From NCBI GenBank assembly GCA_051294375.1, contig JBJCIZ010000778.1:1-25615 (forward strand): DNA of 25,615 nucleotides. Direction: 5' to 3'. This document shows, piece after piece, positions 854 to 25,615 of the stretch (positions are counted from its first letter, which is position 1; each line of letters begins with the position of its first letter). The position numbers and the translations under genes are program-made. Source of the stretch: Paraspadella gotoi (lineage: Eukaryota > Animalia > Chaetognatha). The notes under the pieces were generated by a model. That model was not told the origin of the DNA. It saw nothing but the letters and a program-made list of their open reading frames with translations, and did not search any database.

Positions 854-1048
854 CTCGTCGGCCCTGGACGTTAGAGCTCGGACTATCGCGGCGTCAAAGT
901 CGTAGAGGCGCGCGCGCGTTTCACATCCTTTTTGGAGAGGAAGACGACGACGTCGGCCCCGCGGGTCGGAGAGTCCAGGCTCGAGAACGCGTTCGACGCC
1001 AGGCCCTTGAGGGAGAGGCGGTGAGTTTAGGGTGAGGTTAAGAACGCA
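854..1048 (-). CDS. SH3GLB1: Endophilin B exon: linker plus start of SH3 domain
   Basis: Minus strand reads ..SNAFSSLDSPTRGADVVVFLSKKDVKRAR(A)LYDFDAA...RADE (with indels), then a GTCAGC donor. Matches the endophilin-B SH3 start (KARVLYDYDAA..ELSLLADE). Acceptor position is approximate. Confidence 0.8.
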
Positions 1049-3559: not shown

Positions 3560-3819
3560 GAATCGTTAAAAACGAGTTCTGTCTCTCTTTGGTCGATCTC
3601 TTACGTGATCGTTCGTTTTTGAAAAATTCTGATTTTTTTTTTCTTTCTAAAAAAAAAAAAAACATAGTATATTTATCAGGCGCGGCCTTTTCTGAATCGT
3701 TTTAAAAAAACGAGTAATCAGGGCTCTCTCCTCTCTACCCTCCGTCTTTCCTCTCTCTCTCTTCCTCCTACGCTTCCCTGTCTTCTCTGCTTTCCATTCT
3801 TATCTGTCTCTCTCTCTCT

Positions 3820-7732: not shown

Positions 7733-8579
7733 CTATGCCAGAAAGAGAAGAGAAGAGAGGACAGGGAGAAGAGAGAGAAGTAGAGATTAGAGAGAGAGAG
7801 AGAGAGAGAGAGAGACGGAGAGAGAGAGAGAGAGAGAGATAGAGAGAGACGATGGCGATGGGATTAGGATAGCGATAAAGAGGTAAAAGACAGAAAAATA
7901 ACAAAAAAATTATCGATGATCTACAATGCAGAAAAAGGTCGACGAAGCGAAATTACGTGATTTTGGGAAGTTTGATCAAAAATTACGATATTGATTGCGT
8001 TTCTAGGAATTTCACAGACAAGCAAAGTGGGAAAAGTAAGAGCCTCCATTAAAATCTTCATTTTTTCTACGGAAAAGAAAAGAAAAAAAATATTTCGAGA
8101 TGTTTTTTTTTTGTCGCTGTAAACAACGGGTACTTTAACGACGGAAGTTGTCAACGACGGATTATGTCATCAAATCGACAAGGTTTAGTAAATAAGGTAA
8201 GCAGGTTTTTCCAAAAAGCGTAAAAGATAAAAAAATTTATTCACGATAAAAGGGAAACAAAGCATTCACACCAAAATTATTTTAAATAAATCCAAGTTTT
8301 TTTTTTTTTTTTTACAGAATCGTAATTTTTTAGCGTAATAGAATAATAATAAAGAATTAATTAAACTCTATCATGATTTTGAAAAAAGCTAAAATCTCTG
8401 AGCCGCTAGTTAAAAAAAAAATTACGAACTGGTACGGCAAAGACAGGGTCATTATTTTCGATAGTGACTTACGTTCGTCATTTGCACTTTCATCACAGTT
8501 TCACATTCTGAAATCGGTTTTCACAAAAGACGATAAAGATAAAAGATATAAAATGGTCGGGCGAATAAAACTGTCCAAA

Positions 8580-9193
8580 TGTGCCGAGGGGAGGAATTAT
8601 CGGAAATCGTGATTCGCGAATCTGAGGATGAAACAATTTCGCGCCGTCTCAAGATTATAGTTACACGTAGTTATAGTAAAGTGTCGCGAGACCTCTGCCA
8701 CCGGCAGTGCTAAGGAATCGGAAATTAGCGTTCTCTTTTTGTCAACAACTTGCTTAGAAAATCTCGTTTTAGTGAATTCCGATTCCTCCAGCGCTTTCTG
8801 AGATTTTTGGAAAATTTATTTGCTGCCATTTTGTTGAAGCCTGCGAGTTGTGGTCCTAGAGATTATAGTAGGTTTCGTCCACTACATTCCCTTTAGATTT
8901 TGAACTCTCGCGCTCTCTCTTTTGTCCACACTTTGTGCCATTGGATTATCATACAATATCGGCGTTTTTGCCCTTTTATTGATTATTCCAAGTTTTATCA
9001 TCTCTTAGAAACGCAGGGATAAATAAAATCATAGGCATTAGAAAGATCAAATTTACCCCATTTCTACATTCAAATCTGATCCTAAAACTTAAACCTCTAA
9101 GGTTAAAAACCGGGTGCTGTAAATTTGATCCTGCCTTCGTCGTAAGCTGCCGAGTGAGCTCGTAATGTTGGTAATATTTAAAACGACACTACA
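8580..9193 (+). repeat. Candidate 5' LTR, boundaries unverified
   Basis: TGTGCC...CACTACA termini fit TGT..ACA. AATAAA at ~9022. Lies upstream of gag. No partner LTR or canonical PBS to confirm it. Confidence 0.3.
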
Positions 9194-9750
9194 AGGCTGT
9201 CGAGGCCAAGGTGGACAGACACTTGGATCTTTGAGTGTAGATTGGGCGTCTGGGCTTAAGTGTATAAATTAAGAATAGTCCGAGCCTAAAGCCAGAGGAT
9301 TAATCCGAGTTTAGTGTGCGCACGTCGAGGGGACTGCAAAGTGAAAGTGTTGTGAGTCGTAGCCGAGATCTTTGTGGCGCGCTCTGTAATGGAAGATTAT
9401 TTTAGATGATAAAGACTAACGGAATTGAGGAAAGGGAGTTAAGAATTTGGTGTAATGAATTAAACAAACGTTTGAGAGATATTTAATTGAAAGGCATCGA
9501 GTTGCCAAAGTGAATCCCGACGTCCGGACAGTTCAGAGGCAGTCCGTGCCCGGAGAGCAGAGTCCGAGTTTGCGTGTCGTCAGTTTTATGCGGAATGTCA
9601 GTTCGTGTGTTATTCCTGTGTTTGGAAAGCGATAAGTAGAGTCGTTATAGTTAGGATCCTAACCGTATTAGATTCCGCCCACCGTATATTGTTTCTCGGT
9701 TATTGCCGACTTGGTCTAATTTAATCTGTGACCGCCGTATCTGCGCGGCG

Positions 9751-12024
9751 ATGGAAGGGTCATTAATGAGTGGTTGTAGAAGGGGGAAAGGAGGCAGGAA
9801 GGATGTGTGACCGATTGATCGAGTGGACCGAGACGAGTCTCTGTCCCGGAAACCCGTTCCGTTATCTCCGCCAGTCGCGTCCTTGACTCTTCCTCAGCTG
9901 CGCTCCTCGTGCCTGCGCTATTGCCTTCAAACCATGAGTTTCTTCCTCCGCCCCGCCGAAAAAGGTCGGCGTGGAGTTCGACTCGTTGCTGCCTGACAAT
10001 TCTCGGCCACAGCGGAGTTTCTGCGCATTTTTCACGCCGTAGGGGAGGGAGCCCGCATTCTTCCTGCCTGAATAGACTCGGGTAACGTCCGTACCAGGTC
10101 GATTCGGCCTCGAGCAGAAAGGAGACTACAAGGTTAGCCAATAGCGAACTGACAGATTGATCGATGAAAGAAATGAAAGTTGAACGGAAAAAAGCTGCCA
10201 GTAGAAAGAATCGCTTAGAAGAAAGTTAAAATTAGCTGAACTGGCGAGGACGAAAAAGCTGGAAAATGAAAAATTTGAAAGGGAAATAAACCAAATGCAT
10301 CAGAGATTAGAAAGATCTATGAATGTTTCAACGAATACTTCTAGGAAACAACGGGGTGCGCCGAGAGGATCGCACAACGGCTCGTTCATCGACTTGCGAG
10401 AAGAAATTCCAAACCCTTCGTCCCCAAATGCTGTAGTCACGGTAAGTGCGGAGGGGAATAGAAATAGGAATGTCAACATGGTAAAGGAAAACATTAATTC
10501 TGTCGTCAGTCGCGTTAGTCGATCGTCTCGTGAAAATACTGAGCCAAAGGTTGTGTCCGGTTTGTCGTTGACGGAACCGATTCTGTCTGGAGGCGGAGAC
10601 ATTGATCAGTCATCACTTGCTCCGAATGTGCCGAATAGAAGGTTGTCGCCGTCCGTAGTTAAAACGAGTCCGTGTGTTTCTAGGGACGGTCCAAGAGTTG
10701 AAAAAAGACAGTCTGTATGTTCTGCGACTCAGGTTGATTTTCCTCCCACCCAATCTAATTGTTATGTGTCTCAGCAAGGGTTTCCGGTCGTTTCGAGTGC
10801 TTCGCGTCTGATTTCGCCAACAAACAAGGTTACGGAGAATTTTCATAAGCAGTCCATTATCCACACAGACAGGCACAGTTGTGACCGATACTGAAGGCGA
10901 TGGACCATTTGCCCAGCTTTGTTCCATTCAGAACCCAACATCAGCTTTCACGATGATGCATCAAGAGAGACCAAAATTAAAGTTTAATGGTAAGGACAAG
11001 AGATTGATTTTGAAAGCCAGTTGAATTTGTTTAACTCTTTACTAATATTGTTGGAGTGAATGATCAGATGTTGATGAGTGAGATAAGGAGTATTTTGATG
11101 GAGATGCTGCGATTATAATATCACAATATGAGGCTTCAAGTGATTTCACTGGGGCGCTTAAAAAGGTTCGGAAGGCTTGAGAGTTGAGTTTGGAAAAAAA
11201 ACTACACGGCCCACCAAATGTTGGAAGAGCTTTTTGGGGACCCAAGATTTCACAGGATTTTGCTGGCGCTAGAACCTTTGTTCTCGAAATGGAGAAGTTT
11301 CATATTCGTGCGGTTGAAACTAAGAGGGAAGCGACCTTTTCCACTTTAGAACTACCGGGAGATTGTTTCAAAAAATTGCCTTTCTTAGCCGCACTTGGTG
11401 CATAGAAGGATGATCGATTCGGAATGGGAAGTGTTGCAGAGTGATGGAGATGGCTTTATCGATGAAGAGATGAAGTTTGATGCATTTGTTAACTTCATTA
11501 AGAAAGCTCTGAAGGTTAATGAAAGGAAAGCAACTTTGTTAGGGAACCGAGACTCTGCTGTAACAAGTCATACGACTCCGGCGACTCAGCCTCGGACAAT
11601 CAATATGTTTAATCGTAATCAAGCATCAATTCGATTAGGGACAACCGCAGTCGCCGCGAATTCCACCCACCCTATAGCGTCAACCCATACTAAGCCTAAA
11701 GATCATAAAGCTAACGCTGTCGCCGCCGCGTCCCATTTCCCAAATCCGAATTCTGATCCTAATAATCACGCACCACGTGTTCCGACGACACCGAAGTGTA
11801 AGTTTTGTGAGCAAAGTCATTATATCGGAAATTGTGATAGTTTTCTTTCCCTTGCTCATGATGCTAGAGTTGCTTGGATGAAGGAAAAGGTTTTATGCTT
11901 TTTGTGTTTTGGAAGAGGCCATGTTGCTAAAACTTGTCTGAAGCTTCTTGGATGCTCCAAATGTGGAGGAAGGCATAACGTGGCTTTTCATCTGGCAGAT
12001 GCTGCTCATGCAGAGTCTTCCTGA
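9751..12024 (+). CDS. gag: Bel/Pao Gag, broken by multiple frameshifts upstream of ~11400; start uncertain
   Basis: Pieces include a coiled-coil (LAELARTKKLENEKFEREINQMHQRLE), a Ser/Pro-rich region (ORF 10295-10894), a PKLKFNG motif and ORF 11184-11405. The clean C-terminal ORF 11395-12024 has the Bel/Pao triple knuckle CKFCEQSHYIGNC / CFLCFGRGHVAKTC / CSKCGGRHNVAFH (11797-11991). Confidence 0.85.
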
Positions 12025-15000
12025 CTCGCGGCAGCATACGCGGCCACAGGAGCGTTTCGTCCAATCGTCCCAGTAGTAGTTTCAAATGGTTCAAAGCGTG
12101 TGGTCGTGTATGCCATGCTTGATAGTGGCGCAACGAGATCTGCCGTTACATCTAGGATTGTTAGTCATTTAGGATTACAACCTTACACTTTGTTCACTAA
12201 TCTTTCTACATATAATTCTGTCACCCAAGCTTGGCGTGATTATGTTGACTTAAGGATTTCGACTCTTGATGACTCTTATTCCATTGATATCAATAAGGTG
12301 TTAGTTGGTGCAGTCTTGACAACTGAGTATGACCGACCATGTAAGAATGCTGATATCATTGATTATGAATACATGAATGATGTTGTGTTTGAGGAATTGG
12401 AAAACGATGGCGTGGAATTGATTCTTGACGCTCGCTTGGCGGCTACTTGGGTTGGAGGGGAGACGAGAGTTGGCCCAGAGGGATACCCAGTTGCCCTTAA
12501 AACCCGTTTTGGTTGGACTTTGGTAGGTGCTAGTGAGAATGAGACTCATGACTACTTGAGTTGTTGTTCAACTATTCCAGAATTTGAGCATTTGGAATTT
12601 TTGATAGCTTCAATGTTCAGGCATGATTTTTTGCTTCGTGGTGATGAGAGGTATCCTTCTGAGGTTCAGCATCCATCTGCTCAAGATCTGTTTGCAATTA
12701 AACAATTGGAAGAAGGCATTTATTTCAACAAGGAGACGGGCCACTATGTGGCACCATCGCCTTGGAAGAATGGTCGTGAAAAAACTGCGGATATGTTTAA
12801 ATCATGTCGTGATGATGCAACTGAAAATGCAAAAAGTCGAGCTCGAAAAACTGCTCATAAGATGAGGAAAGATTTGGTTTTGAGGGATGGTGTATTTAAA
12901 ACAATGGAGGAGACGATTGAACTGGGTCATGCCAGGAAGGTTGTTGAGGATCATCCATTTGAAGGTTCTCTCGAGTATTTTGCTCCTATTCATGTAGTGA
13001 CGCGTTCCGACAAACCTGGAAAGTTCCGGATTTGTCAGGATGCAGCGACAAAGGTCAAAGGTTCAAGTCTGAATGATTTTCTTATACCAGGGCCCGATAA
13101 TCTCACTCCCCTTCTTGGAATCTTGTTAAAATTTAGAAGAAAAAGGGTCACTTTGTCTGGTGACATTAAACTATTTTTTCATCAAATTGAGCTTCATCCA
13201 AAAGATGTTCCGGGGTTTAGATATTTCTGGTATACTGATAAGACTATGAAAGTACTTGAAAAACATGAACCTTTGGTCCACGTCTTTGGAGCAGCCGGAA
13301 GTCCTGGAGTAGCTAATTTTGTATTGCAATACCACGGCAAAGCAAATAAAGAGAGATTTTCGCCAGAAGTTCTAGTCGCTTTGTTTTTAAAATTTTATGT
13401 GGATGATTACTTGGATTCCTTAGATGGAGTCAAGGAAGCTAGAAAGATGAGAATTGAGTTGACTGAGGCTATGAAGGAAGGAGGATTTGAGCTGACTAAG
13501 TGGCAGAGTTCCGATCCGGGAGTTCTCATTGATTTCTCTGACGATGATGATTCCGAAAAAATTGATGGAGCGATTAGTGCTGCGGTGGAAGCCCCTCTTC
13601 CTCAAGATTCTGAAGGACTTTCTGATGATCTTGAGGGAGTTGCTGACAATGCTATTCCTGAGGACCCCTCCTTTGATGTGCAGAATGGAAAGATTCTTGG
13701 TGTTGGTTACAATTTTAGTCATGACGTTTTCTTTGTCAGAGTGACCGAGCGAGCTAAAAAGGAAGCTAAGACACGTCGTGATATCTTGAAACTCGTTGCT
13801 TCAATTTATGACCCACTGGGTCTTGTCTCCCCATTCATCCTTAAGGGGCGAAGCTTTTTCCAACGGGTTACGGATCTTAGGCTTGAATGGGATGAAAATG
13901 TGCCAGATGATGTACATAAAGAATTTAACAAATGGAGAGAGAGTATTTTTTGTCTCAAAAAATTATTAATTCCCAGATGGACATCGGTCTTAGGATTAGG
14001 AGATTTTGTGGCTAAGTTAATTATTTTTAGTGATGCATCTTTGGATGGGTACGGTATGACAGCTTATATTAAGAAAGAAAGTAAATGTAATAAGTTAAAT
14101 CATGTCTGTTTATTATTTTCTAAGTCCCACGTCGTACCCATCAAGATGCAGAAAACGATTGTTCCAGATCAACTTGACCATGGCATGTCGATGCCGCGAT
14201 TGGAGTTGAATGCGGCACGCTTGGCTGCTCAAATGCGAGATATGTTAGAACGGGAGTCTGGGGAGAGTTTTGAAAAAGTATTTATGATTACTGATTCGTT
14301 AACTGTCTTGAAATGGGTTGGGGATTGGGAGAAACGTTTTAAAACGTTTGAAAATTTCCGCTTACGAACAATTCGTCATCTTTCCAGGGTATCGGAATGG
14401 TTCCACGTCGCGGGCGAGGAGAATCCAGCTGATTTGACGAGCCGCGGAATCGAAGGAGGCGACTTCAAAAGATGGTCTTTGTTTCATCAGGGGCCGACTT
14501 GGCTCAAACTTCCGGAGGACAAATGGCCAATCGTTTCCGACCCAAAGAATGTTAAGAAGAAAAAGATCAATCTCAAAGAAGTTCACGACGATACTGCTTT
14601 CTCCCCTTCTGAACTCGTTTTGCTCGGTGCGACCCATGAATATCCCGTGATTCCCGACTCGGAACCCTCAACAGGTTGGGTCCTAAAAGTATGTGAGAAA
14701 CTGAATGGTTGGGAGAAGAAAGTAAGAAGAGTTGCTCTCTTTACAAATGCTGTATTAAAATTTGTAAAATTTTTGGGTAATAAACAATTAGTATTTGAAA
14801 AAGTTAAATTAATGGCCGATGAGTTTAAATTTGCTGAAAAAATGATAATTCGTTCTATCCAGCGGAAACATTTTAAGAAAGAGATCGCGCAATTGTTAAA
14901 GCTTGGAGTGTTTTCGGCTGATGCACACCGAGAGCTTCGTAGTAAAGAGTCAAAAATAGTTAATTTGAGCCCTTTTTTAGATGAATTTGGATTGCTAAGG

Positions 15001-16200
15001 ACTGGGGGGAGACTTTCTAATGCTGAATGTTTAAGTTATGAGTCTAAGTATCCTTGTATCCTTCCTAAGGATGATGAAGTGGTGCGATCAATTATTCAAT
15101 TTGAGCATGAGGAATTGTTACATTCTGGCCCAAGTGCAACTTTTCATTCCCTTCGCCAAAAATTCATAATTTTGGGTGGGCGAGGTACTGTTGATACTGT
15201 ATTGCGGAAATGTGTAAAGTGTCAAAAATTGTTTAAAAATCCTTCTCCTCAAAAGATGTCCAACCTGCCATTAGAAAGGATGGACCCCTCGTGGCCATTT
15301 CGCGCCACCGGGGTTGACGTCTTTGGTCCCTTCCAAGTTAGACTGGCGGGACGAGGACTAAATAAAAAGTTTGTACTTTTGTTGACCTGCTTAACTACTC
15401 GCGCAACTGCCTTTGAGGTGCTGCGAGATATGTCAACGCCCTCTGTTTTAAATGCTTTGATAAGGTTTAAGAATCTTTACCCAGGTCTGGAGACTCTCAT
15501 CTCTGACAACGGTACAAACTTTAAAGGGGCTTCGGGTGAGCTCAATCGACAGTTTGAGGCGATACAGAATGATGAAAACTTTAATAATGCTATAGCCAAA
15601 AAGAATATTCGATGGAAATTTGGTCCACCTTACACCCCGCATTATGGGGGAGTGTGGGAGCGGATGGTTAGAAGTACTAAGAAATTGCTAAAAGCAATTA
15701 TTCCTAATGAGATGGACCTTGATACTTTTGTAACTATTCTCAGTGAGGTGGCTGGTGTGTTGAATCGACGTCCAATCACTTATGTTCCGACTGGCCCTCT
15801 TGACTTTATTGTGCTATCTCCATCTAATTTTTTGTATCCCTATTTACATGCTTCTAGTGCACTTACATTGTTACCTAATGTTTCCTCAGAGAGTGACGTA
15901 ATGCGTTCAACTTGGAAAAAAGTTAGGGAGGTTGCCGATGAGTTCTGGCGAAGATTTATTGTCGAATATTTACCTACTTTACAGGCGCGAACCAAATGGA
16001 GAAATTCGTCAACGGATTTGGAGATCGGCCAAATCGTCTTAGTTGTGGACCCGACTGCCGCCCGTGACTGCTGGAAGGTCGGTCGCGTCCATGAAGTCTT
16101 GGGCGATGGACCTCACGCCCGAGAAGCCATCGTAAAGATGCCCGATGGCCGGACTTTAAAAAGACACAAGTTGTCTCTTGTGGGACTAGAACTACAATAA
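12025..16200 (+). CDS. pol: Bel/Pao Pol polyprotein: aspartic protease, reverse transcriptase, RNase H, integrase
   Basis: Protease LDSGATRS (DSG at 12121). RT GDIKLFFHQI, VFGAAGSP and FYVDDYL (YVDD 13396-13407). Pao-type RNase H FSDAS, SMPRLELNAA, TDS, WFHVAGEENPADLTSRG. Integrase HEELLH..CVKC, GVDVFGP, SDNGTNF, GGVWERMV. C-terminal FWRRFIVEYLPTLQARTKW. The frame is open from 12025 and in frame with gag. Confidence 0.97.
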   Translation, partial: LAAAYAATGAFRPIVPVVVSNGSKRVVVYAMLDSGATRSAVTSRIVSHLGLQPYTLFTNLSTYNSVTQAWRDYVDLRISTLDDSYSIDINKVLVGAVLTTEYDRPCKNADIIDYEYMNDVVFEELENDGVELILDARLAATWVGGETRVGPEGYPVALKTRFGWTLVGASENETHDYLSCCSTIPEFEHLEFLIASMFRHDFLLRGDERYPSEVQHPSAQDLFAIKQLEEGIYFNKETGHYVAPSPWKNGREKTADMFKSCRDDATENAKSRARKTAHKMRKDLVLRDGVFKTMEETIELGHARKVVEDHPFEGSLEYFAPIHVVTRSDKPGKFRICQDAATKVKGSSLNDFLIPGPDNLTPLLGILLKFRRKRVTLSGDIKLFFHQIELHPKDVPGFRYFWYTDKTMKVLEKHEPLVHVFGAAGSPGVANFVLQYHGKANKERFSPEVLVALFLKFYVDDYLDSLDGVKEARKMRIELTEAMKEGGFELTKWQSSDPGVLIDFSDDDDSEKIDGAISAAVEAPLPQDSEGLSDDLEGVADNAIPEDPSFDVQNGKILGVGYNFSHDVFFVRVTERAKKEAKTRRDILKLVASIYDPLGLVSPFILKGRSFFQRVTDLRLEWDENVPDDVHKEFNKWRESIFCLKKLLIPRWTSVLGLGDFVAKLIIFSDASLDGYGMTAYIKKESKCNKLNHVCLLFSKSHVVPIKMQKTIVPDQLDHGMSMPRLELNAARLAAQMRDMLERESGESFEKVFMITDSLTVLKWVGDWEKRFKTFENFRLRTIRHLSRVSEWFHVAGEENPADLTSRGIEGGDFKRWSLFHQGPTWLKLPEDKWPIVSDPKNVKKKKINLKEVHDDTAFSPSELVLLGATHEYPVIPDSEPSTGWVLKVCEKLNGWEKKVRRVALFTNAVLKFVKFLGNKQLVFEKVKLMADEFKFAEKMIIRSIQRKHFKKEIAQLLKLGVFSADAHRELRSKESKIVNLSPFLDEFGLLRTGGRLSNAECLSYESKYPCILPKDDEVVRSIIQFEHEELLHSGPSATFHSLRQKFIILGGRGTVDTVLRKCVKCQKLFKNPSPQKMSNLPLERMDPSWPFRATGVDVFGPFQVRLAGRGLNKKFVLLLTCLTTRATAFEVLRDMSTPSVLNALIRFKNLYPGLETLISDNGTNFKGASGELNRQFEAIQNDENFNNAIAKKNIRWKFGPPYTPHYGGVWERMVRSTKKLLKAIIPNEMDLDTFVTILSEVAGVLNRRPITYVPTGPLDFIVLSPSNFLYPYLHASSALTLLPNVSSESDVMRSTWKKVREVADEFWRRFIVEYLPTLQARTKWRNSSTDLEIGQIVLVVDPTAARDCWKVGRVHEVLGDGPHAREAIVKMPDGRTLKRHKLSLVGLELQ

Positions 16201-16902
16201 TAATGTTTACAATCGTCATTATGAACAAATTTTTCAGTGATAATACCTCTCGTAATGCATTTGTTTAGAATGAGTTTAATCCTTCCTTTGTCATCGCTGA
16301 TGCAAAACATTTAAAAAAAAAAAAAAAAGTTGACATTTTTTATTTCACTAATTTTTCTCAATGTTTGTATAAAAAGTAATTATTTATAATTACTATAGTA
16401 CTACTATAATTCGACATTAGATCGTTCCCAGTCACTAAATTGATCGATTTAAGGCTTGAATCACTCTGAGTAACTTAATCTAAGGTCAAGAATTTGTACT
16501 GAATTTCTTCTAATTCCAACTGCATAAAATTAATAATATTTTTAGTAAGACCATTGTTTAAGATTAATTGGAAATCGTTCATCGTCCACTCATGATTGAG
16601 TCAATTTCACTATCTCACAGTTAGCTTGGTCGATTAAGATTGAAAACTAAGTTAGTAACCTCTGAGTAGAGAGTTATTTGGTTAAAATTAAGATGTTTAT
16701 CGTGTTCGTGATAGCTTGAAGTACTTATGCATGATACATGAAAGACAGTTTGCTGAATTACATTATTTTTCTTTCTCTCGCCAGTTAAGACTAAATTTAT
16801 TTTAACGAATTTTTATTTTATGTTTTTATCGTCGTTTCGTGTTAATAGTTTAAATTATTTTTTTTTACAGTAGTTAAATTCTTACAGTTCAGCTTGATTA
16901 AA

Positions 16903-17232
16903 ATGTCCGTTTCCGTTGCGCTTAATAAACTGAAAGAGGTTTATGAGGCCATCGCTGACGCCAAGATCGCCATGTTGATGATTAACAAAAGCAATGACGA
17001 GTGGAATGTTGCCCTTTCAAAGCATGAAACAGTGAACGAACGGATCGCCGAAGCCAAAGAAAGCATCAAGGCTGTTGCTAATCTTCGAGATGCAGCACAA
17101 AGGATGGTGATGATTAAGGCCATGAAGGATAGACTGAATATGTATGAAAAGATTTCTACTGATGACCGAGGATGTTTGGATCGGCTTCGTCCAGAACCAG
17201 AAGCGAAACGTCCGCGACTCTTCATGGGATAG
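16903..17232 (+). CDS. Accessory ORF A1, 109 aa helical protein with C-terminal NLS-like PEAKRPR
   Basis: GC-richer island in an AT-rich spacer. AAAATG start, acceptor TTTTTTACAG at 16870, amphipathic heptad pattern. Confidence 0.75.
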   Translation: MSVSVALNKLKEVYEAIADAKIAMLMINKSNDEWNVALSKHETVNERIAEAKESIKAVANLRDAAQRMVMIKAMKDRLNMYEKISTDDRGCLDRLRPEPEAKRPRLFMG

Positions 17233-17526
17233 GTGTAGTAAATAGACATGATTGTTAAGTTAGTAGATCCAGTTTTCATGGAACCCGTTGAAAGTTAGAA
17301 CCTCGTCTTAAACTCAAATTTGTTTTAAAATTTCATCGTTAGTATGTTAAGAGAATTTAAATATTTTTAGAACAAAGTCTGGATTTGGTAGATATTAAGT
17401 TTATTACTTTCAATGTTCGTTTTTCTTTTCAAGATTAATAGGTATTTGCCAACTAACTTTATCGCTTCTCGTCTCCCGCTCGCTTTCGGATTGTTAATCA
17501 TTCCTCCTCGGTTCGTCGTCATTGTA

Positions 17527-17843
17527 ATGGTAATACCTAGTTTAATTGAAATTTAAGATAGTAAAGGTCGTATGTACTAGAGTATAACCATGTATATTTT
17601 AATCAGAATCGCTCTGTCGGAATCGCGAGCGAAGTTTTCGCTGCGAAGGAAGGGGCAAAACGGATTTTCGTTCTCGGAATGGCAAAGAGAGAAAGGACGC
17701 GGTCGACTTCGGCGCTCAACGGAAGTACGGACGTCGCCATTGAGACTGAGAATGTCATCGTCGGGATTCCGTTGCACGACTTGTGGTCCTTGGAGCGGGC
17801 ACTTAAGAAAACCACGGAGGAATTAGAACGACTCAAACAATAG
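17527..17843 (+). CDS. Accessory ORF A2, predicted spliced 79 aa: join(17527-17529,17607-17843)
   Basis: Frame open 17607-17843 (NRSVGIASEVFAAKEGAKRIFVLGMAK...LWSLERALKKTTEELERLKQ*). ATG|GTAATA...TTTTAATCAG gives a 77-nt phase-0 intron. Alternative is an unspliced 54 aa product from ATG 17679. Not in the supplied ORF track. Confidence 0.55.
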
Positions 17844-18316
17844 GCCATGGAGTGACTCTCTATACTTGTGCTTGCTTTCAGTTACAAACTTTGGTCATGT
17901 TAGGCAATTTAGGCAATAAGTAAAACGTTTAAGATGAGCAACATAATAAATAATTAAGCTTTTATTCTGTTTATTAGTCTCTATTTGAGTAAGTTAATTT
18001 AAGTTCAGTTCTTATAAGATTTCTTATTTAGAGTCAGTCGGAATTGTTGATGTCCTCTACATTGGAAGAGATTAATTAATCAATTAGTTAATTAGTTAAT
18101 TTAAGGAAGAAAGTTTAATTAAGTTGTATTTTTTTTTAAATAATTGTGTAAAGTCAAATCGTAAGCTTAATTGATATGTTAGTTTACTATTGACATTTTT
18201 TTTCGTCGCCTCTTTGTTCATGTTAGGTTATTTTCCAAAATTGAAATTACTATCCTTTAGTCATATAGACTCGTCTCGTCTGTTCATTGCAAAGTATCTG
18301 TTTACGGGCATAGAAT

Positions 18317-18586
18317 ATGGCGCGAGCTCCTAGTTTTTTTCATCGCGAAATGATGAGCTGTCTCGTATCTCCTGAGAACATGGATAAGTTTCATGAAATC
18401 TACGACCGGATTGTGCGATCCAAGGAAGACGAGTTGTTCCAGCTTTTGGAGAGGTTGGGGATCCCAAGAACGAGGACAGGCCAAGTTCCAGCAGAATTCG
18501 TGCCAATGTTTGCAGATTGGGAGAAGAGGGCCGAAGACGAAATCAACGCAGCGATCCGGGACTTCATTAAAAAGAATGAAAAATAA
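18317..18586 (+). CDS. Accessory ORF A3, 89 aa, unknown function
   Basis: ATG-to-stop ORF coinciding with a GC island, globular helical composition. First ATG after the pyrimidine-rich acceptor ending TGTTAG at 18226. Confidence 0.75.
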   Translation: MARAPSFFHREMMSCLVSPENMDKFHEIYDRIVRSKEDELFQLLERLGIPRTRTGQVPAEFVPMFADWEKRAEDEINAAIRDFIKKNEK

Positions 18587-18992
18587 ACTTTCGTTGGTAA
18601 CCAAAGTTGGTTAATTCTGAAACTAGTTTTCTTTGGTTTGACTAATTTAAAATTAAATAAGGTTCTATTGCGTTAATATTGATCAATGAGTGAGACTTTC
18701 GTCAGGCATTGGTGCCAGAACCTGTGTAGTGTTATGCATAAAAGAGAATTAGTTTGATTACGTCATAAGTTATTTAGATTTTTTGGGAATAATCTAATCT
18801 GATATTTGTCGTAATAAAAATGTTAATATAGGATATTTTTTGGTCGATTTTTCGTGAATGGTTGAATTAAGTTGCTTAGTTTAAATTTAAATCATAGTCG
18901 TGATAAGATAATTAGTTAAATAATGAAATAATACTTCAATACTCTTTAAAAAGTTTATAGAATTTTCTACTTGCCTGAATTTCATATGAAAG

Positions 18993-19220
18993 ATGTCGTT
19001 AAATTCCCAAGAACCAGTTGAGAGTAATAACGTTATTTTGGGAGCAAGATTAATGGGGGCTATCATTGAAGTGGGGGAGTCGTTGAGCACTCAAGATATG
19101 ATCCAGCTCCGGTGGGCAATAGAAAGAGGAATTACGTTGGCAAGAGAAGCTGAAATGAGAAGAATCCTGGCAGAGCAAAACGCTGAGAGAGAAAGAATTA
19201 GGAACATTCGGGAGGAGTGA
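18993..19220 (+). CDS. Accessory ORF A4, 75 aa with charged C-terminal helix
   Basis: AAGATG start, GC island, tail REAEMRRILAEQNAERERIRNIREE. Confidence 0.7.
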   Translation: MSLNSQEPVESNNVILGARLMGAIIEVGESLSTQDMIQLRWAIERGITLAREAEMRRILAEQNAERERIRNIREE

Positions 19221-19402
19221 TACTATCATCAATGTAATAGACCTTGTCGGCCTTGATCGATGATTGTGATAGCGTAATACAATTGGTATGGTATTTGAAT
19301 TTTTTTTTTTTTTTTTTGGATTCTAATATTTTTCGGCGAGAGGAAAATTTTGTCTATTTTTGCTTGTTATTTGATTTGACAGGATTAGTGATTTAAATAG
19401 TA

Positions 19403-19687
19403 ATGGTCTCTAAAAGAGTATTTAACGATGGCGATCCTAGAAATAAAATTGGCGCGTTGCGTCAGAGGCTTAGTGATCCAGCTGGAGAAGTGGTCCACGT
19501 CACCCCGGACTCGGGGAATCATTCGCGGTCGGGTGGCATCTCTTTTGATCGGATACACAGAATATCAAACCATGATAATCGAGGGGTTTCAGTCTCATTC
19601 CGGATTCGATTTTGGGAGCTGGGGAGTCAAGTAGCTCCAGCCGTCGTAAATGAAATCTTGGCTACGGAATCTAGCAGATTGTTTTAA
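19403..19687 (+). CDS. Accessory ORF A5, either 94 aa (19403-19687) or the overlapping 68 aa frame (19428-19634)
   Basis: GC island after the acceptor TTGATTTGACAG (19382). Two ATG-initiated frames are open and I cannot choose between them. Confidence 0.55.
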   Translation: MVSKRVFNDGDPRNKIGALRQRLSDPAGEVVHVTPDSGNHSRSGGISFDRIHRISNHDNRGVSVSFRIRFWELGSQVAPAVVNEILATESSRLF

Positions 19688-20029
19688 TTAAAAACATTTC
19701 TTCACGAATTAATGATGAAAATTTTATAAAGCTTTCGTTGTAATCTTGTTGATAACTCGGTATTTAAATTATTATTATAATTATAATAAATATTAAAATT
19801 AAATTTAAAAAATTGCCCCTATTGAATTTAATTTCATAGTAGATTTCTATTTATATAGCAAAAAGAAAAGTCGTCTGTACCATAAATTTTTTTTTAAGTT
19901 GATTTGAGGATTTTTTGTAGTCAACCTGTGATGAAAATTTTCGGTGCTTGTCATTTTTACTATTACGCATATCTTTATCTCTGGTTGCAGATTTCATTGT
20001 CTGTTTTCTTTCTAGCGAAATCCGTAAAA

Positions 20030-20373
20030 ATGAACAAATTTGAATTCAAGAGAGCAATGACATTTGCTGATGCGGCAGCGAGAGATCTTTGCAATGCAGT
20101 GAGTAGACTTGAGGAAGCGAACCGGTCGGTTTTTCGTGCGGCGAAATTGATGGGTTATTGTTTGGATAATCTGGAAGTCAAGAACGATGTAAGTAAAACG
20201 AGGGAAGGAGAATTTAGGAGTTTACAATTGATAAATAATTTGTTTTTTGTCAGCGTCAGGGTAATTACGTGCCATTGGTGGAGTGGGTTGAGGACTCTCC
20301 GACATTTAAGCCAGGATGTGCAGTGATAATTGCCAAGACTCGTTCGTCCTCAGCTCCTGGTCCAAAGATTTAA
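20030..20373 (+). CDS. Accessory ORF A6, predicted spliced 92 aa: join(20030-20188,20254-20373)
   Basis: AAAATG start. GAT|GTAAGT donor and TTGTTTTTTGTCAG acceptor define a 65-nt phase-0 intron. Exon 2 reads RQGNYVPLVEWVEDSPTFKPGCAVIIAKTRSSSAPGPKI*. Confidence 0.7.
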
Positions 20374-20558
20374 ACTGTTATGAATTTTAAAAACTCATTC
20401 GTGATGTGACGTGAACGTGACGCGATATCTCAGTTTTTTATTTGTGTGTCTTTTACAGGGTTTTAGCAATTGATTTTGAATTTGTGAAATTTAAACATTA
20501 CTATTCGAGAGATCGTGAGATCTGTGTGAATTCTAAGAGTGAAAACTTTATAATCAAG

Positions 20559-20879
20559 ATGGATCCAGTCACGACTGAAGTCGCAGTCATTGAAGCTGAA
20601 TCGGCAATGATCATGGCGTTGTTAGCCAGCGCGGAGTGGAAGCAGGCGTTGACGGACGATGAGAAGATCAGGGCCAAAAGCATGGCTCTGCGGGCACAAG
20701 ACGTCTACAAAGAAACCTTCCGGTCTGTTTTTACCATTTTCCAAGCCGATCCTTTGGTTGATGATGACGTGTGGAGAAACCGATTATGGAGAGCCCTCAA
20801 TGACGGGAGGAAATTTTTAGTGGAAATATTTGGCGAGTGGTTCGACATGCCACAACTTGAAATCATAGAGGATATATAA
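20559..20879 (+). CDS. Accessory ORF A7, 106 aa helical protein
   Basis: AAGATGG start, first ATG after the acceptor TCTTTTACAG (20458). Reads MDPVTTEVAVIEAESAMIMALL... Confidence 0.75.
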   Translation: MDPVTTEVAVIEAESAMIMALLASAEWKQALTDDEKIRAKSMALRAQDVYKETFRSVFTIFQADPLVDDDVWRNRLWRALNDGRKFLVEIFGEWFDMPQLEIIEDI

Positions 20880-21110
20880 GTTGAACGACTATTACATTAA
20901 CTGTTACCTTTTTAGTTTGATCGCGCGATAATTTAATAGAAACTGGTTTGTGATGGTTAATTTTAATGCGTCATGTCAATATTAAAATTGTTACTTAACG
21001 TGATCGTTTAACTAAGATTGTATTTCCGTATTAAGTTGGCTTAAAGTGAAGTATTTGAGTTGGTTTTTTATTTAGCGTGAATTTAAAAAAAAAAGTTATT
21101 TTTCACTAAA

Positions 21111-21338
21111 ATGGAGTCGAAGTTATTAGAAGCAATAGAAGTGATAACTCTAGCTAAAGATTCCCTAACGACAGCTACTGATGAGTGGGTACGGGAAGTA
21201 GTTTTGACTAAAGTTGAAAAGGCTTTAAGACTCATGAACGAGATGTCCGCGGAGATGATTCATGAACGGGTGAGCTCGATTGATCCAGAAAAGTTGAGTT
21301 CGAGTCGCCAGAATCATAAGTTAAAGGAATCTCGATAG
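21111..21338 (+). CDS. Accessory ORF A8, 75 aa helical-hairpin-like protein
   Basis: AAAATGG start after TTTTTTATTTAG (21075). Similar by eye to A1 and A9. Confidence 0.7.
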   Translation: MESKLLEAIEVITLAKDSLTTATDEWVREVVLTKVEKALRLMNEMSAEMIHERVSSIDPEKLSSSRQNHKLKESR

Positions 21339-21486
21339 AAACTTGTATTAGTGATAGTTTAGTTGTTTTGCTTAATTTTCTATACGTTTAGATACATTAT
21401 TAAATTTGTTTTGGTCGCGTTTGTCTGAAATAGTTAATGTTTCATTTAAATGTTTGCAGTTGTAGCGTTATCAGCTCATAAATAAG

Positions 21487-21798
21487 ATGGGAGCGCGACT
21501 CACTATGTTGAGGGCTTTTGAAAAGATGCTGGACGCTTCAGAGGCGAATTGTTTTGCTTGTGAGCTACTTTTACGTTTGGAAAGTTCCCAAGATCGAAAC
21601 GCGGCTCGCGTGGCTATTTCCAGGGCAAGGCGGCTCACCGGCGAGGCTATGACGATAATAACTTCAGCGTTGGCTGGGATCCACCCACTCGATCACTATT
21701 TTCCAGAACTGAATGAATACGGAAATAGTTGGATGGACAGATTGCGCGTTGAAAGTACCCTCCTCCAGGATATGATGGATTTAGTCTTAAGTTCTTAG
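21487..21798 (+). CDS. Accessory ORF A9, 103 aa helical protein
   Basis: AAGATGG start after TGTTTGCAG (21459), GC island, ungapped similarity to A8. Confidence 0.75.
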   Translation: MGARLTMLRAFEKMLDASEANCFACELLLRLESSQDRNAARVAISRARRLTGEAMTIITSALAGIHPLDHYFPELNEYGNSWMDRLRVESTLLQDMMDLVLSS

Positions 21799-22192
21799 AC
21801 GAGTCAGAGTGACAGACCAAAGGGACTAATGAGTCAAATTTCGTGATGTGAATGTTTGAATATTTATCTGTTCAAAGGCTAAAATTTCATTGTTCTTGAA
21901 CAAATTTTTTTTTTGAATTTGATATTCTATTTGCTATTGTTTTGTTTAACCAGGTTAACTATTAATTCTTAATACAAACTAAGAAGTTGACTATATGTTA
22001 TCGAACTCAGTCCTATTTCGTCGATCAATTCGCCTCAGCTTATTGTTAATACATTTCAAGTGAGCGCTGTCCACTGTCAAGCGGACTCAAACCTTCTACG
22101 ATCGTTCTCACGGCTTCCTTCAACGTTCGGTGTCCTCGTAAGCGGACACAGACAAACTTTGCTTCCGGGTCGTTCAAATTGTTCCGTCAAGA

Positions 22193-23530
22193 ATGAGCGT
22201 GCTTCTCCGTCCTGCGGGAGATGTTCTCTTCGGGGGCCTTACAGACGATGAAAGGCAAATGTTTAGTGACGATGATTTGGTTTTTCCCAATGAACAATCT
22301 TTGGATGAACCGGTAACCTCGCTGTCAAAGAGAGAAGCTCCAACGGACCAGGAGAAAATGGTGAATAAGATATTTAGTTAGTTGTATAATGTCATTCGTT
22401 ATTGGTTTTCAATAAAATTTTATTTTAATTAGGCATTTACGGATAATTTTCTGAGCGGAAAAGAAAGACCAACTCCCGCTCATCGGATCGCTATGGAAGA
22501 TTTGAGCTATCCGATTATTTACGGGACTGGGGATGAAAGGATCTTCAGTCCTACGTTTGTCGCTCCTGACGGGAAAGAATTGATGTTTAAAAGAATCAGG
22601 AGAACTTGGGAACGGATTGCGATGAAGCGAGGATGGAGTCGGGTCGTGTTTTGGGAATTCGTGGACCGAATGAATCGCGGAGAAAGTCATGAAGTTCTCT
22701 ACAAACTTGCAAGGAGGATCTTTCCGGTCAACCAAGAGTTTCGAGACTGTCCGCCACCACCAGCAACCCGGGTCTTCACGGCGCGTGATTCCGAAAACGA
22801 TCCGCCATCTATTCGTTATACTTCAAGAAAAGATTACTCGAATTCTTCTGATCAGCATGATGGCCAGATTCCTCAAGCTACACTTACGAAATCGATTAAG
22901 ACTCAAACCGATATAGATGGGACCGTTTGGAGAGATATTGAAGTTCGTGCATTAAAAATACAGAGAGAAGGTTTACACTTAAAGGCAGCTAACTCTGAAT
23001 TGAGAAGAAGAGTTGATGAGTCTGAGAGGAAGTTTCAAGGGGAAGTTGAAAAAAAGCTAGAATCTGAGATGAGGTTAGAACTAAACAAAAAAGAAGCGAG
23101 TGAAAGGTTAGCTAAAGTTGAGAGGCTCTGGGGTCAAAGTTATGAGAGAGAGAAAAAAAGGGCTGATGAATTGGGCGTTTTGTTAGAAAAGGAGAGGAAG
23201 CGGGTTGAGGAATATAGGGCTGAGTTGGAAAAATTACGGTCAATGGAACGTTCCCAAACTCCGATACGAAACAGATACGTTCGCCATGATTCGCCTGTTC
23301 AAGGGTCCTGGGGAGAGAGTTGTGCTCATCCTGTTAAGTTATCAAGGTTCAATCCGCCTCCAGGACAAGAATTTATGTGTCAGACTCCACAGGGCTTGCA
23401 GTCCCCAGTTTCAACTCGTTCATGTCATCTTAAGCTTCCCACATTGTCATCTGATACACCACCGCCGCCGCCTTCGCCTCTTGCAAGACCATCTTGGTAT
23501 AAGCCTGTCCCAAGAAAACGTAAAAACTAA
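22193..23530 (+). CDS. Accessory ORF A10, predicted spliced 421 aa: join(22193-22360,22433-23530)
   Basis: ATG|GTGAAT...TTTTATTTTAATTAG (72 nt, phase 0) joins the 22193 ORF in frame to AFTDNFLSGKERPTPAHRIA-MEDLSY. The product has an acidic N-terminus, a Trp-containing domain, a ~100 aa E/K/R coiled coil, a Pro/Ser tail and terminal PRKRKN. Confidence 0.8.
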
Positions 23531-23798
23531 TAATTTGTTGCCAGACACTGGAATTCAGAATGAGTGGTTTATGTTAATTATTTTTTTTAGTGACTCGCTA
23601 TTCTCTATTTGTTTGACAAGTAAATTCGTTAGAGAAAAATAATATTTTTGTGGAGAGTTTAAACAAAATCTATATTTTATTTTGTTAAAACGAATTTCTG
23701 AGAACAGACGAATGTTCTGAATTTTTTAATATGTCAATTTGGGCATACAAATTTCAATGTTAGAATAAATTAAGACTTCGTCGTGATTAAATTTTGTT

Positions 23799-23965
23799 TG
23801 ATCCAGCCGTCGGGCTGAGCTTTTTAAGATTAATGATCCAGCTGGCGAGCTGAGGGTTTTTTAAGATTTATGATCCAGCTGATGAGCTGAGCTTTGTTTA
23901 AATTTTACGATCAAGCCGGCGGGCTTACTTCTAGACATTAAGATTTGATCCAGCCGTCGGGCTGA
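23799..23965 (+). repeat. Five-copy 35-38-nt tandem repeat, each with a 5-bp stem and 4-nt loop
   Basis: Units start at 23799, 23834, 23871, 23908 and 23946. Core GATC-(C/A)AGCY-GNYG-RGCT(G/T). Confidence 0.9.
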
Positions 23966-24247
23966 AATTATTTTTTATTTGGAGATTGGATGGCAGTGGC
24001 AATAACAAATTTACGCGTATTACTGAAGTAATGTTATTACATTAGAAATAAATACTGTCTGATTGTGAAACTCACCATTGTCTAAGGAAGTTTCAATTCG
24101 TTGTCAAATGTTGTTGTCTCAAAGTTTTTTGAGATTTAAATAAGGTCGGCGATCTAAACATTGTGATCCCAGAATAACTTGTTTCCGGGATATTTGTCTA
24201 GTGATTTAATTAGGAATTTGAATACCGATATGACTTGTCGGTATATT

Positions 24248-24308
24248 TTCGTTCCCAAGACTAATAATCTTGGCTATCTTCGTTCCCAAGACCAACAATC
24301 TTGGCTAT
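24248..24308 (+). repeat. Two-copy 31-nt-period repeat with CCAAGA-N7-TCTTGG hairpin
   Basis: TTCGTTCCCAAGAC(T/C)AA(T/C)AATCTTGGCTAT occurs twice. The differences fall only in the loop. Confidence 0.9.
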
Positions 24309-24349
24309 TTGTCGGAGTCTTACATTGAATAGACTCAATTTGTAAGTTC

Positions 24350-24520
24350 ACAGGGCGGACATACCCTGATGGAACTTAAAGAACCATTTCTTTCTCGATA
24401 GTCAACAGGGCGGACAAACCCTGATGTGACTTATGTATTTATCTCGAAAGTTGACAGGGTTTAAAAATCCTGATGCGACTTATCTCTCGAAAGATAACAG
24501 GGCTGAAAAGACCCTGATGA
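24350..24520 (+). repeat. Four-copy repeat ACAGGG-N8/9-YCCTGATG with CTCGA(A/T)AG in each spacer
   Basis: CAGGG starts at 24351, 24406, 24455 and 24498. Period 43-55 nt. Confidence 0.85.
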
Positions 24521-25139
24521 GACCTTTCTTAGAGGGGCATCCATACCCCAATATTTTTTGTAGTATATTGACGACGTCGTCCATTTGTTTCGTCCTCTTG
24601 TCTTTTTTCGTCCCCCTTCGTCATCTTTCTCTTCTAACCATCATGGTGAGGCCAGCCGTGAAGGTTTAAGTTAAAACTTACCAGAAACTTATGATTAGAA
24701 AAGCGTAAAATTGAATATTTGTTGATTGGATCTGCGACTGCAGCGCAGAGGAGAATCTTTGTCCGATTATTTGAAGTTTATCTGAGCTAAAAATTTTTTT
24801 TTTAAAACGAAAACACGAATGAATCGCTTTGTCGTGCGGTCACGTTTATTAGTACTAATTGATGTACATAGTTTTTTTTTTTTTTGAGCCCGCTTTTATT
24901 AATTTTTACAAGCGTGGTTAACAGTTATTGTTTAGTCCGTTTAGAATCAGTCCCATGTTGTTTGAGGGATTGAAATTATTCTCACGAGCACATTTATTGT
25001 TACAATTGATGAAATTTATAGATTCTAGAACAGTATTTATTTGCAAGTAGAAAGCTCAATGAATTTTTGAAACTTTGAAAATTAGATCAAGAAAAGTAGT
25101 AATAGATGTATTAAAATAGAATTGAACAGTTAATTTAAT

Positions 25140-25615
25140 TGAGCTAGCAGCATCAGTCCCACCAAACATGGGGGAGGTCAGACAGATTTAGTGAGCTAGA
25201 CATCTTGCCTAGATTCCATTCACTCTAGATAGTCGAGAAGGATTGTCAAACATTTCATTCACGTCAAGCACCAGCTAATTGTCGTCAGCAGAATTCAAGT
25301 CGGCCGAGACGAGAATGATCAACAAGACGCAGCTTCCCTATGCCGTCGAGGAATTCGGGACGTCAGCAAGTGTTTGGTGAACCAGATGGTGCATGCAGTC
25401 TTGAAGAAAGGGGGGCGGTTAGTTGGGAATGTTTAATGGGGGGAGGAACTTGCAGTAATGGCGACGTCGGAGCACGGCAAGATCGTGAACAAACGGCGCG
25501 GCAATGGCGAGATTGCAGATGGTGGTAACAGCGGGACGGCAAGATCTTGAACAAAACCTGGGAAATCGGAGGGGAGAAATTTGGGGCAGTTATTGAAGCT
25601 GATACTACAAGTCCA
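25140..25615 (-). other. Possible 3' end of an antisense coding region, disrupted and running off the window
   Basis: GC-richer block. One minus frame is open from the window edge to 25363 (Pro/Ser-rich). Contains a 63-nt-period imperfect duplication (25450/25513). No recognisable domain. Confidence 0.3.

Follow-up and report, generated by a model that had tools for sequence, protein, structure and literature searches.

A 25,615-nt contig of the chaetognath Paraspadella gotoi (JBJCIZ010000778.1, analysed whole and called the window here) carries an intact Bel/Pao-type pol followed on the same strand by a cassette of ten ORFs, several of which are real genes that are transcribed and processed. 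We consider it probable, at roughly 60%, that this is a Bel/Pao-type element, 15.5 kb or longer, with accessory genes processed as a spliced-leader (SL) trans-spliced operon, and we hold it probable in the same measure that the cassette is cargo of the element. A first-pass annotation, made from sequence without database searches, had proposed a complex element of at least 17 kb. The cassette does lie inside this copy and several of its genes are processed; the observed extent, from gag to the window end, is 15.5 kb or more.

A Bel/Pao-type pol and the array behind it

Pfam searches of pol (Table 1) recover a weak protease match (residues 1-45), RVT_1 (333-460), Peptidase_A17 (553-728, E 1e-32), Integrase_H2C2 (987-1038), rve (1084-1175) and DUF5641. 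PF05380 occurs in 51 of 52 hits (best identity 45%), in agreement with the Bel/Pao assignment made at first pass. The order PR-RT-RH-IN with Pao-type domains, including peptidase A17 and DUF5641, and the Cys-His knuckles of Gag are those of Belpaoviridae (Bel/Pao). The family's ICTV description gives one to three genes in 4.2-10 kb (PMC8742986), whereas here gag and pol are joined by some ten more genes, about 12 over a span of 15.5 kb or more between gag and the window end, and there is no env-like ORF. Because gene count and size exceed that range, we file the element as Bel/Pao-type and not as a typical member. The knuckles lie in the last open gag segment (11389-12021; visible in 11410-12024), and zf-CCHC_4 matches gag weakly (E 0.083). 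Pol is likely produced by read-through of the gag TGA; the TGA-CT followed by in-frame pol is kept in all three relatives checked (L001, L003, L004). TGG sites and purine runs are present, none of them assigned as primer-binding site or polypurine tract. Elements of the family have two LTRs of 0.2-1.2 kb and a target-site duplication. As first noted, the window lacks a 3' LTR: a blastn comparison (word 7) of 7901-16200 with 16201-25615 gives no LTR-scale repeat, the best E being 0.23.

Table 1. Features of the window, with positions counted from its first letter.
Feature	Position	Strand	Details
gag region	10205-12024	+	several frameshifts in assembly; start uncertain; judged from open stretches per frame
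gag stretch in derivative junction	11616-11634	+	X9 contig (depth 66); 11 other letters, then 23587; loose end read by eye
gag stop TGA, then CT and in-frame pol	12022-12027	+	likely read-through junction
pol, intact	12025-16200	+	protease, RT, Pao peptidase A17/RNase H region, integrase, DUF5641
ORF1	16903-17232	+	109 aa, helical-looking; acceptor at 16870
ORF2	17679-17843	+	54 aa (probable)
ORF3	18317-18586	+	89 aa; acceptor candidate 18226
ORF4	18993-19220	+	75 aa; true start uncertain, clean acceptor not found
ORF5	19403-19687	+	94 aa; acceptor candidate 19382
ORF6 trans-splice acceptor	20013-20016	+	contig begins at 20016 after 25 non-window letters
ORF6	20030-20373	+	92 aa, two exons; GT-AG intron 20189-20253, 65 nt
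ORF7	20559-20879	+	106 aa, predicted three-helix bundle; acceptor 20458, where ORF6 contig ends
ORF8	21111-21338	+	75 aa; covered in X5, X6
ORF9	21487-21798	+	103 aa; X5 and X6 contigs stop at AG at 21953
ORF10	22193-23530	+	predicted 421 aa with predicted intron 22361-22432
3' region of element	23587-25615	+	continues past window; common to deeper-covered family, 2-7% diverged
antisense exon	24872-25559	-	X5, X6 contigs

The ten plus-strand ATG ORFs announced by the first-pass annotation are all present behind the pol stop and co-oriented with pol. They encode 54-109 aa, plus one predicted protein of 421 aa (ORF10), start 376-776 nt apart, and form the GC-richer islands described there (0.42-0.52, against 0.24-0.37 in the spacers). 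Four of the nine stop-to-start gaps are shorter than 250 nt (148-231 nt), and other spacers reach 470-700 nt. ATG ORFs of at least 70 aa within 16201-23530 number 12 on the plus strand, overlapping alternative frames included, and 3 on the minus strand; local shuffles (n=1000) gave a mean of 0.94 and a maximum of 6, none reaching 12. Of 11 segments tested with a frame score trained on pol, 10 favoured the frame that had been called. The ORF2 locus was scored on an overlapping 78-aa frame at 17590 rather than on the 54-aa frame and, because that frame is the sole segment scoring against (-15.3), it was ruled out, and ORF2 is probably only 54 aa, below the minimum of about 70 aa first reported.

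The usual hydropathy threshold for a transmembrane segment is about 1.6. Maximal 19-residue values across the cassette ORFs are 0.22-1.45, so that no transmembrane segment is evident, as had been claimed. No env family matches at the Pfam cut-off either, and on these two absences an env reading of the cassette was rejected. Plus-strand GC skew is 0.10-0.16 across 8580-25615 and 0.01 in the host flank. Tracts of (GA)n/(CT)n of at least five units, said at first pass to be missing here, lie left of 7840 in 21 of 22 cases, the exception being one (10 nt) inside ORF10.

None of the ORFs was recognised at first pass, and database searches leave them orphans. The cassette has nothing significant in Pfam or PHROGs (best E 0.023). 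Searches of large databases covered ORF7, ORF9 and ORF10. For ORF10, exon 2 has no homologue among 5.8 billion proteins, nor the first 255 aa among 1.84 billion representatives; the best E against PDB sequences is 0.37, and the ESM Atlas returns nothing. Its predicted layout is a small N-terminal helical domain (model pLDDT below 60, unreliable), a coiled coil of about 90 residues, and a Pro-rich and basic tail, which is presumably NLS-like, as we also take the basic KRPR motif at the end of ORF1 to be. The best ESM Atlas score for ORF9 is 0.76, below chance level. ORF7 has no sequence homologue; its model (pLDDT 71.5) finds nothing at E 0.001 or better with Foldseek in PDB and BFVD, and its top VIA-align Z of 11.1 falls among unrelated three-helix bundles and below the level meaningful for bundles. 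In metagenome loci 15 relatives of pol occur, at 25-40%; where their pol is complete, the DNA behind it never exceeds 1.5 kb. Against the four relatives with DNA past pol (L001, L004, L011, L014; 0.1-1.5 kb) and other fetched loci, the cassette ORFs reach a best tblastn E of 0.35. No pol relative was found in viral contigs, and no second full-length copy was seen in the public contigs compared.

The 3' region and a deleted derivative

The sequence behind ORF10 contains 37-nt and 31-nt tandem repeats, and an X9 contig extends 262 letters beyond 25615. Depth in X1 is about 600 over this 3' region and 60-75 over the cassette; all 40 of the 100 differences that were listed lie within the 3' region. 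An X9 contig joins gag directly to 23587 (Table 1), a join with a chance expectation of about 5e-6, and an X6 contig likewise appears to start at 23587, judging from side lengths of 45 and 63. This join is the junction of an internally deleted derivative belonging to the roughly tenfold deeper family, and its 3' breakpoint is 57 nt behind the ORF10 stop. Since the derivative's gag runs into DNA immediately behind ORF10, the place of the cassette is between pol and the 3' region that belongs to the element itself; the junction brackets the cassette and says nothing on whether the derivative's parent carried it. An element end between pol and the cassette, which the first-pass annotation had itself named as the case to look for, was not found. 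It is very improbable that the element is truncated behind pol and that the ORFs are neighbouring host genes. The absence of an LTR at either end inside the window fits such a truncation, but the DNA behind ORF10 is high-copy and joined to this gag, and the host-type (GA)n tracts are missing.

A more serious alternative is that an SL-trans-spliced operon of orphan genes, either a host operon or a second mobile element, entered this one copy as DNA behind pol and is not carried along by the family. Cassette sequence was found in three samples at about 99% identity or more, and its X1 depth, with 0 differences in the contigs, is compatible with a single copy. Such an insertion would account for a depth about one ninth that of the 3' region in X1 without variants and for a spliceable intron having been kept, and for chaetognaths young genes are reported to be numerous and operons to hold as many as nine genes (PMC12460157). 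Nevertheless, the cassette shares strand and GC skew with pol, no terminal repeats bracketing it were found in the window nor a transposase in the cassette region, and the derivative breaks immediately behind its last gene. Moreover, its ten orphans (54-421 aa), with no Pfam match at cut-off, are unlike host operons, which are described as housekeeping-biased (PMC12460157), and an oversized Bel/Pao element is reported from Spadella. On balance we consider a one-off insertion unlikely, and favour the reading of the cassette as cargo.

Transcripts and the spliced leader

Public contigs were compared with the cassette from ORF5 rightwards; the 5' end, gag, the pol-cassette junction and ORFs 1-4 (7900-19334) lie outside this comparison. 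Transcription of the cassette, for which a check of RNA-seq coverage had been proposed, is seen in contigs of runs X5 and X6, which are labelled 'DNA?' and in which splicing shows RNA behaviour. In contigs of both (one sample), the ORF6 intron is removed (joint 20188>20254, GT..AG). ORF6 and ORF10 need one intron each, and removal is seen for that of ORF6 alone; ORF5 and ORF10 have little or no cover in X5 and X6. Sense-strand introns are unexpected in something copied via RNA, which speaks against the cassette being cargo.

The ORF6 mRNA contig of X6 starts at 20016, with a pyrimidine-AG acceptor directly before it, and its X5 counterpart has the same first base. All 25 loose letters on the X6 contig match the 3' end of chaetognath SL2.0 (PMC2481426 Table 3), and these leader letters are absent from the window sequence. 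Of the 10 acceptors, one shows the leader, in a single contig of a single sample. At their other ends, X5 and X6 contigs stop at downstream acceptor AGs, at 20458 with 19 loose letters and at 21953 with 16, and an X5 contig also ends at 21458. Judging from these end positions, the upstream cistron is likely polyadenylated at the next acceptor; in a Spadella operon the poly(A) site is reported 3 nt from the next acceptor (PMC2481426). One X6 contig spans ORF8 and ORF9, but it does not show a single transcript for the array. The host apparently processes the array in the manner of a spliced-leader operon, a mechanism that the first-pass annotation missed.

It is also conceivable that the cassette belongs to the element and that every gene is either served by an internal promoter of its own or joined by cis-splicing to an LTR leader, as in Tor env or foamy-like viruses, with trans-splicing only trimming outrons. 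The longest spacers could house promoters, Tor3b/4b env relies on an internal promoter, and only one acceptor shows the leader. We nonetheless regard this as improbable, given that contigs end exactly at downstream acceptors, that the four shortest gaps would leave just 148-231 nt, and that the leader joined at 20016 does not occur in the window.

For the operon reading, one long transcript would run through the cassette, from the 5' LTR or from a promoter behind pol. At each AG acceptor the leader would be added to the downstream cistron, and the upstream cistron would end there, likely polyadenylated. Genomic RNA (over 15 kb) would have to skip about ten acceptors and retain its introns, and the element would therefore need a Rev/CERV-like factor. 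By its coiled coil and basic tail ORF10 is a candidate for this part, though an RNA-export or regulatory role is a guess that we think doubtful. The small helical ORFs may serve as binding modules that counter host silencing; in one chaetognath the main target of DNA methylation is reported to be LTR elements (PMC12460157). The autonomous copy likely mobilises the roughly tenfold commoner deleted derivatives as well. More tentatively, and at somewhat less than even odds, this would be one of a chaetognath lineage of giant complex Bel/Pao retroelements, with an SL-run ten-gene operon that includes silencing suppressors and a factor exporting unspliced genomic RNA: a parallel among invertebrates to the complex retroviruses, using a new expression strategy and driving a larger family of deleted passengers.

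Known systems and meaning

A survey took 15 kb as the upper bound for full-length elements (PMC3118150), and a 13,941-bp Bel/Pao element with 914-bp LTRs, annotated with gag-pol only, is reported from Spadella. The nearest precedents in the sources drawn on are Cer1 and the Terminons. Cer1 of C. elegans is likewise an LTR element in a trans-splicing host; its spliced accessory mRNA can carry the host leader SL1, and its genomic RNA must skip splice sites and needs CERV for export (PMC3315495, PMC10309623). Unlike the element here, with about ten separate cistrons behind pol, Cer1 is Ty3/gypsy and is described as making one accessory protein via cis-splicing from gag exons; the ORF10 database searches found no sequence link to CERV. 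The Terminons of bdelloid rotifers are giant retroelements of a gnathiferan host with many accessory ORFs, coiled-coil ones included, but are described as having a Penelope-like RT, telomere attachment, recognisable enzymes as cargo and no LTR-type integrase (PMC6431247).

Fish foamy-like ERVs such as AciFLERV likewise have large LTR genomes, of up to 17 kb, and carry several accessory genes that are orphans, some of them paralogous. They differ in being Retroviridae with env and in having five accessory ORFs of 234-465 aa, and the portion of the source used does not mention trans-splicing (PMC5512871). Bdelloid LTR elements with ORF3 (PMC5408684) and planarian Burro share large size and non-env cargo behind pol, but are reported with a single additional ORF in each family, or with domains that are fused to form part of a polyprotein, and are Ty3/gypsy-like. 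The processing itself resembles that of chaetognath host operons, with SL addition and, as the contig ends suggest, an upstream mRNA that ends beside the downstream acceptor (PMC2481426, PMC12460157); those are described as enriched in housekeeping genes, the longest having nine (PMC12460157), whereas here ten orphans sit inside a retrotransposon. In the mainly open-access literature searched, no Bel/Pao element, nor any other LTR element, is described as having a multi-gene operon that is trans-spliced.

Should the cassette be cargo of the element, the number of genes known from a Bel/Pao element would roughly quadruple, and borrowing the host's SL trans-splicing would offer a way past the one-mRNA-one-protein limit that keeps LTR elements small. 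This raises the questions of how genomic RNA stays unprocessed across about ten acceptors, and of whether orphan accessory proteins counter the transposon-targeted DNA methylation reported for a chaetognath (PMC12460157). The cargo reading further predicts that LTR finders capped near 15 kb (PMC3118150) overlook elements of this kind, and that among the 'chaetognath-specific genes' some are cargo of retroelements.

Two smaller observations concern the window itself. Among the 45 pairs of cassette ORFs only ORF1 and ORF7 stood out, with a weak and marginal similarity (Z 4.6, 0 of 500 shuffles, best of the 45). On the opposite strand, the antisense exon has a minus-strand acceptor at its right end, and its upstream exon lies outside the compared stretch.

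A gene array behind a Bel/Pao-type pol

On its left the window consists of host DNA, which is AT-rich and contains (GA)n tracts; a retroelement follows. By its sequence, the pol of this element is of Bel/Pao type, with Peptidase_A17 (E 1e-32), DUF5641 and integrase domains in Pfam, and with PF05380 present in 51 of its 52 database matches, the best of which is 45% identical. Behind pol lies a cassette of ten plus-strand ORFs of 109, 54, 89, 75, 94, 92, 106, 75, 103 and a predicted 421 aa. ATG-initiated ORFs of at least 70 aa in 16201-23530 number 12 on the plus strand and 3 on the minus strand, against a mean of 0.94 in shuffled sequence, and 12 was reached in 0/1000 shuffles. The ten-ORF array of the first-pass annotation is confirmed, with ORF2 cut to 54 aa. 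Its description of GC-richer islands in AT-rich spacers also stands, at 0.42-0.52 and 0.24-0.37 GC respectively.

Neither Pfam nor PHROGs gave a significant match for any cassette protein, and large database searches found no homologues of ORF10, ORF7 or ORF9. There is no TM-level hydrophobic stretch among the cassette ORFs, whose maximum hydropathy lies below TM level, as the earlier claim of proteins without TM segments had it. AlphaFold2 models computed without an alignment gave a three-helix bundle for ORF7 (pLDDT 71.5) and, for ORF10, a confident helix of ~90 residues preceded by an unreliable N-terminal part; the suggested fold search of predicted structures was run for ORF7, with generic bundles as the sole matches. 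A distant paralogy between ORF1 and ORF7 is possible (Z 4.6, top among 45 pairs), and the basic C-terminal motifs of ORF1 and ORF10 resemble nuclear localisation signals.

Features located in the window and in metagenome loci carrying pol relatives
Sequence	Feature	Coordinates	Strand	Remark
window	pol	12115-16200	+	intact; 1361 aa counted from first ATG
window	gag stop TGA-CT	12022-12027		in-frame pol
L001	gag stop TGA-CT	1043-1048		in-frame pol
L003	gag stop TGA-CT	342-347		in-frame pol
L004	gag stop TGA-CT	4965-4970		in-frame pol
window	ORF6 intron	20189-20253		GT..AG
window	high-copy stretch	19760-19857		ORF5-ORF6 spacer
window	tandem repeats	23799-23965, 24244-24308		37 nt and 31 nt
window	looser repeats	~24350-24530
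window	antisense transcript	24872-25559	-	spliced
L014	two post-pol ORFs	2651-3663	+	245 and 83 aa; directly after pol stop

Processing of cassette transcripts

The cassette is present in nine public sequencing runs from one organism and three samples, and four of these (X1, X5, X6 and X9) were compared with the window over 19335-25615. X5 and X6 come from one sample, labelled 'DNA?', and behave as RNA, because precisely the predicted ORF6 intron is absent from their contigs. These contigs start at 20016, the base right after a pyrimidine-rich AG, and in X6 the start bears 25 extra letters which, by eye, are identical to the final 25 of SL2.0, a chaetognath leader (Table 3 of PMC2481426). Since the sequence of those letters is not in the window, ORF6 mRNA is trans-spliced, and its leader marks the host as a chaetognath; the leader was observed at a single acceptor, in a single contig from one sample. 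The first-pass annotation missed this mechanism: the array is real and expressed, and appears to be processed by trans-splicing. The RNA coverage check that it proposed shows ORF6 spliced, within 19335-25615 and in one sample.

The ORF6 contigs end at 20458, with 19 loose letters, and other contigs at 21953, with 16; both ends fall on the G of the pyrimidine-AG that follows. A further end is at 21458. Because contigs end at acceptors, and because the upstream poly(A) site of a Spadella operon lies three bases from the next acceptor (PMC2481426), we infer operon-type processing by analogy. For 9/10 ORFs a candidate acceptor stands ahead of the start with no other ATG in between, a count made with no control for chance.

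Place of the cassette in the element

X1 cassette contigs (up to 1940 nt) show zero differences from the window at a depth of 60-75, and from ~23750 to the window end X1 depth is 590-660 and contigs are 2-7% different. X9 steps likewise, from 2-6.5 in the cassette to 43-98 in the 3' region, where one contig extends 262 letters beyond the window end. An X9 contig of depth 66 joins the window at 23587, 57 nt past the ORF10 stop, and 19/30 letters shown before the junction are gag 11616-11634 (chance ~5e-6). Because this contig joins gag to 23587, the deeper family is likely an internally deleted derivative, running from part of gag into the 3' region, and the sequence that follows the cassette then belongs to the element. 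That the ORFs are host neighbours is thus barely credible. Judged from this junction, the cassette is inside this copy of the element, a statement that leaves aside the derivative's parent and other copies.

A one-off operon nested in this copy would, as a DNA-level insertion, leave a retained intron such as that of ORF6, and the cassette may be single copy; even so, we hold this main rival to be less likely, as plus-strand GC skew is 0.10-0.16 all along 8580-25615, against 0.01 in the flank. We favor the reading that the cassette is the element's own cargo operon, with a probability of about 0.62. Leader addition, with 3'-end formation coupled to it, would then divide one long transcript into single mRNAs; expression from internal promoters we consider quite improbable. 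Genomic RNA would have to escape all acceptors and retain its introns, and if the cassette is cargo, the retained intron would call for an export factor. ORF10 is a tentative candidate regulator by analogy with CERV, which is required for export in Cer1 of C. elegans (PMC10309623). More speculatively, the small helical proteins could act as binding proteins that counter silencing by the host; in Paraspadella gotoi, LTR elements are the strongest target of DNA methylation (PMC12460157).

Cer1 poses the same genomic-RNA escape problem: its accessory mRNA can bear SL1 and its 8-kb RNA is unprocessed, yet trans-splicing there concerns one LTR accessory mRNA (PMC3315495). Multi-ORF retroelements are already known, namely Terminons, Burro, fish foamy-like ERVs and bdelloid ORF3 elements, and we found no literature report of an LTR element whose multi-gene operon is trans-spliced. 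A Bel/Pao element of 13,941 bp from Spadella (BAC 46L09), for which PMC2997562 annotates just gag-pol, may be related and carry cargo that has gone unnoticed.

Extent, expression of Pol and minor observations

No LTR-scale repeat occurs within the window, in agreement with the report that no 3' LTR is apparent. From gag to the window end the element measures at least 15.5 kb, and the proposed minimum of 17 kb would hold with a putative start near 8580. Belpaoviridae have 1-3 genes and a length of 4.2-10 kb according to the ICTV profile (PMC8742986), so we file the element as Bel/Pao-type but outside the described range: its pol is alike, whereas its gene number and size are not. A polypurine run (8586-8596) lies at the start of the proposed 5' LTR, although it is a 3' LTR, not a 5' one, that would be expected to follow such a run. 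Similar runs lie at 25438 and 25568.

The TGA-CT gag stop is shared by the window and 3/3 relatives checked, and many of pol's close database matches begin just ahead of protease. Pol is likely produced by read-through of this TGA, which suggests a marine Bel/Pao clade making Pol in this way. Gag itself is split over several frames in this assembly. The frameshifts (10100-11450) are all 5' of 11634, in the portion of gag that is presumably common to the derivative family, and pol is intact. Polishing errors may account for some of the breaks; within 24811-25049, 8 gaps set an X1 contig apart from the window. In L014, a 31% pol relative, the two post-pol ORFs are dissimilar to the cassette.

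The high-copy stretch is an AT-rich genomic repeat (X1 bin depth 17467, many differing loose ends) and possibly a small inserted element. Nearby, an X5, X6 and X9 contig matches the window from 19912 on with a different upstream part, and an X9 contig departs behind 19980; perhaps these represent a diverged spacer relative, and thereby a second cassette subfamily or an allele. The derivative family, ~9-15x deeper than the cassette (X1, X9) and 2-7% diverged, also lacks 24868-25017. Tandem repeats in the 3' region vary in copy number between contigs and are candidate packaging or enhancer signals. The antisense transcript matches this copy, not the derivative family. Past its acceptor there are 66 and 238 loose letters, and internal priming may explain why it ends at a genomic T run. 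It could come from an element gene or from a host gene caught by the insertion; host exons left of the element also look minus-strand by eye.
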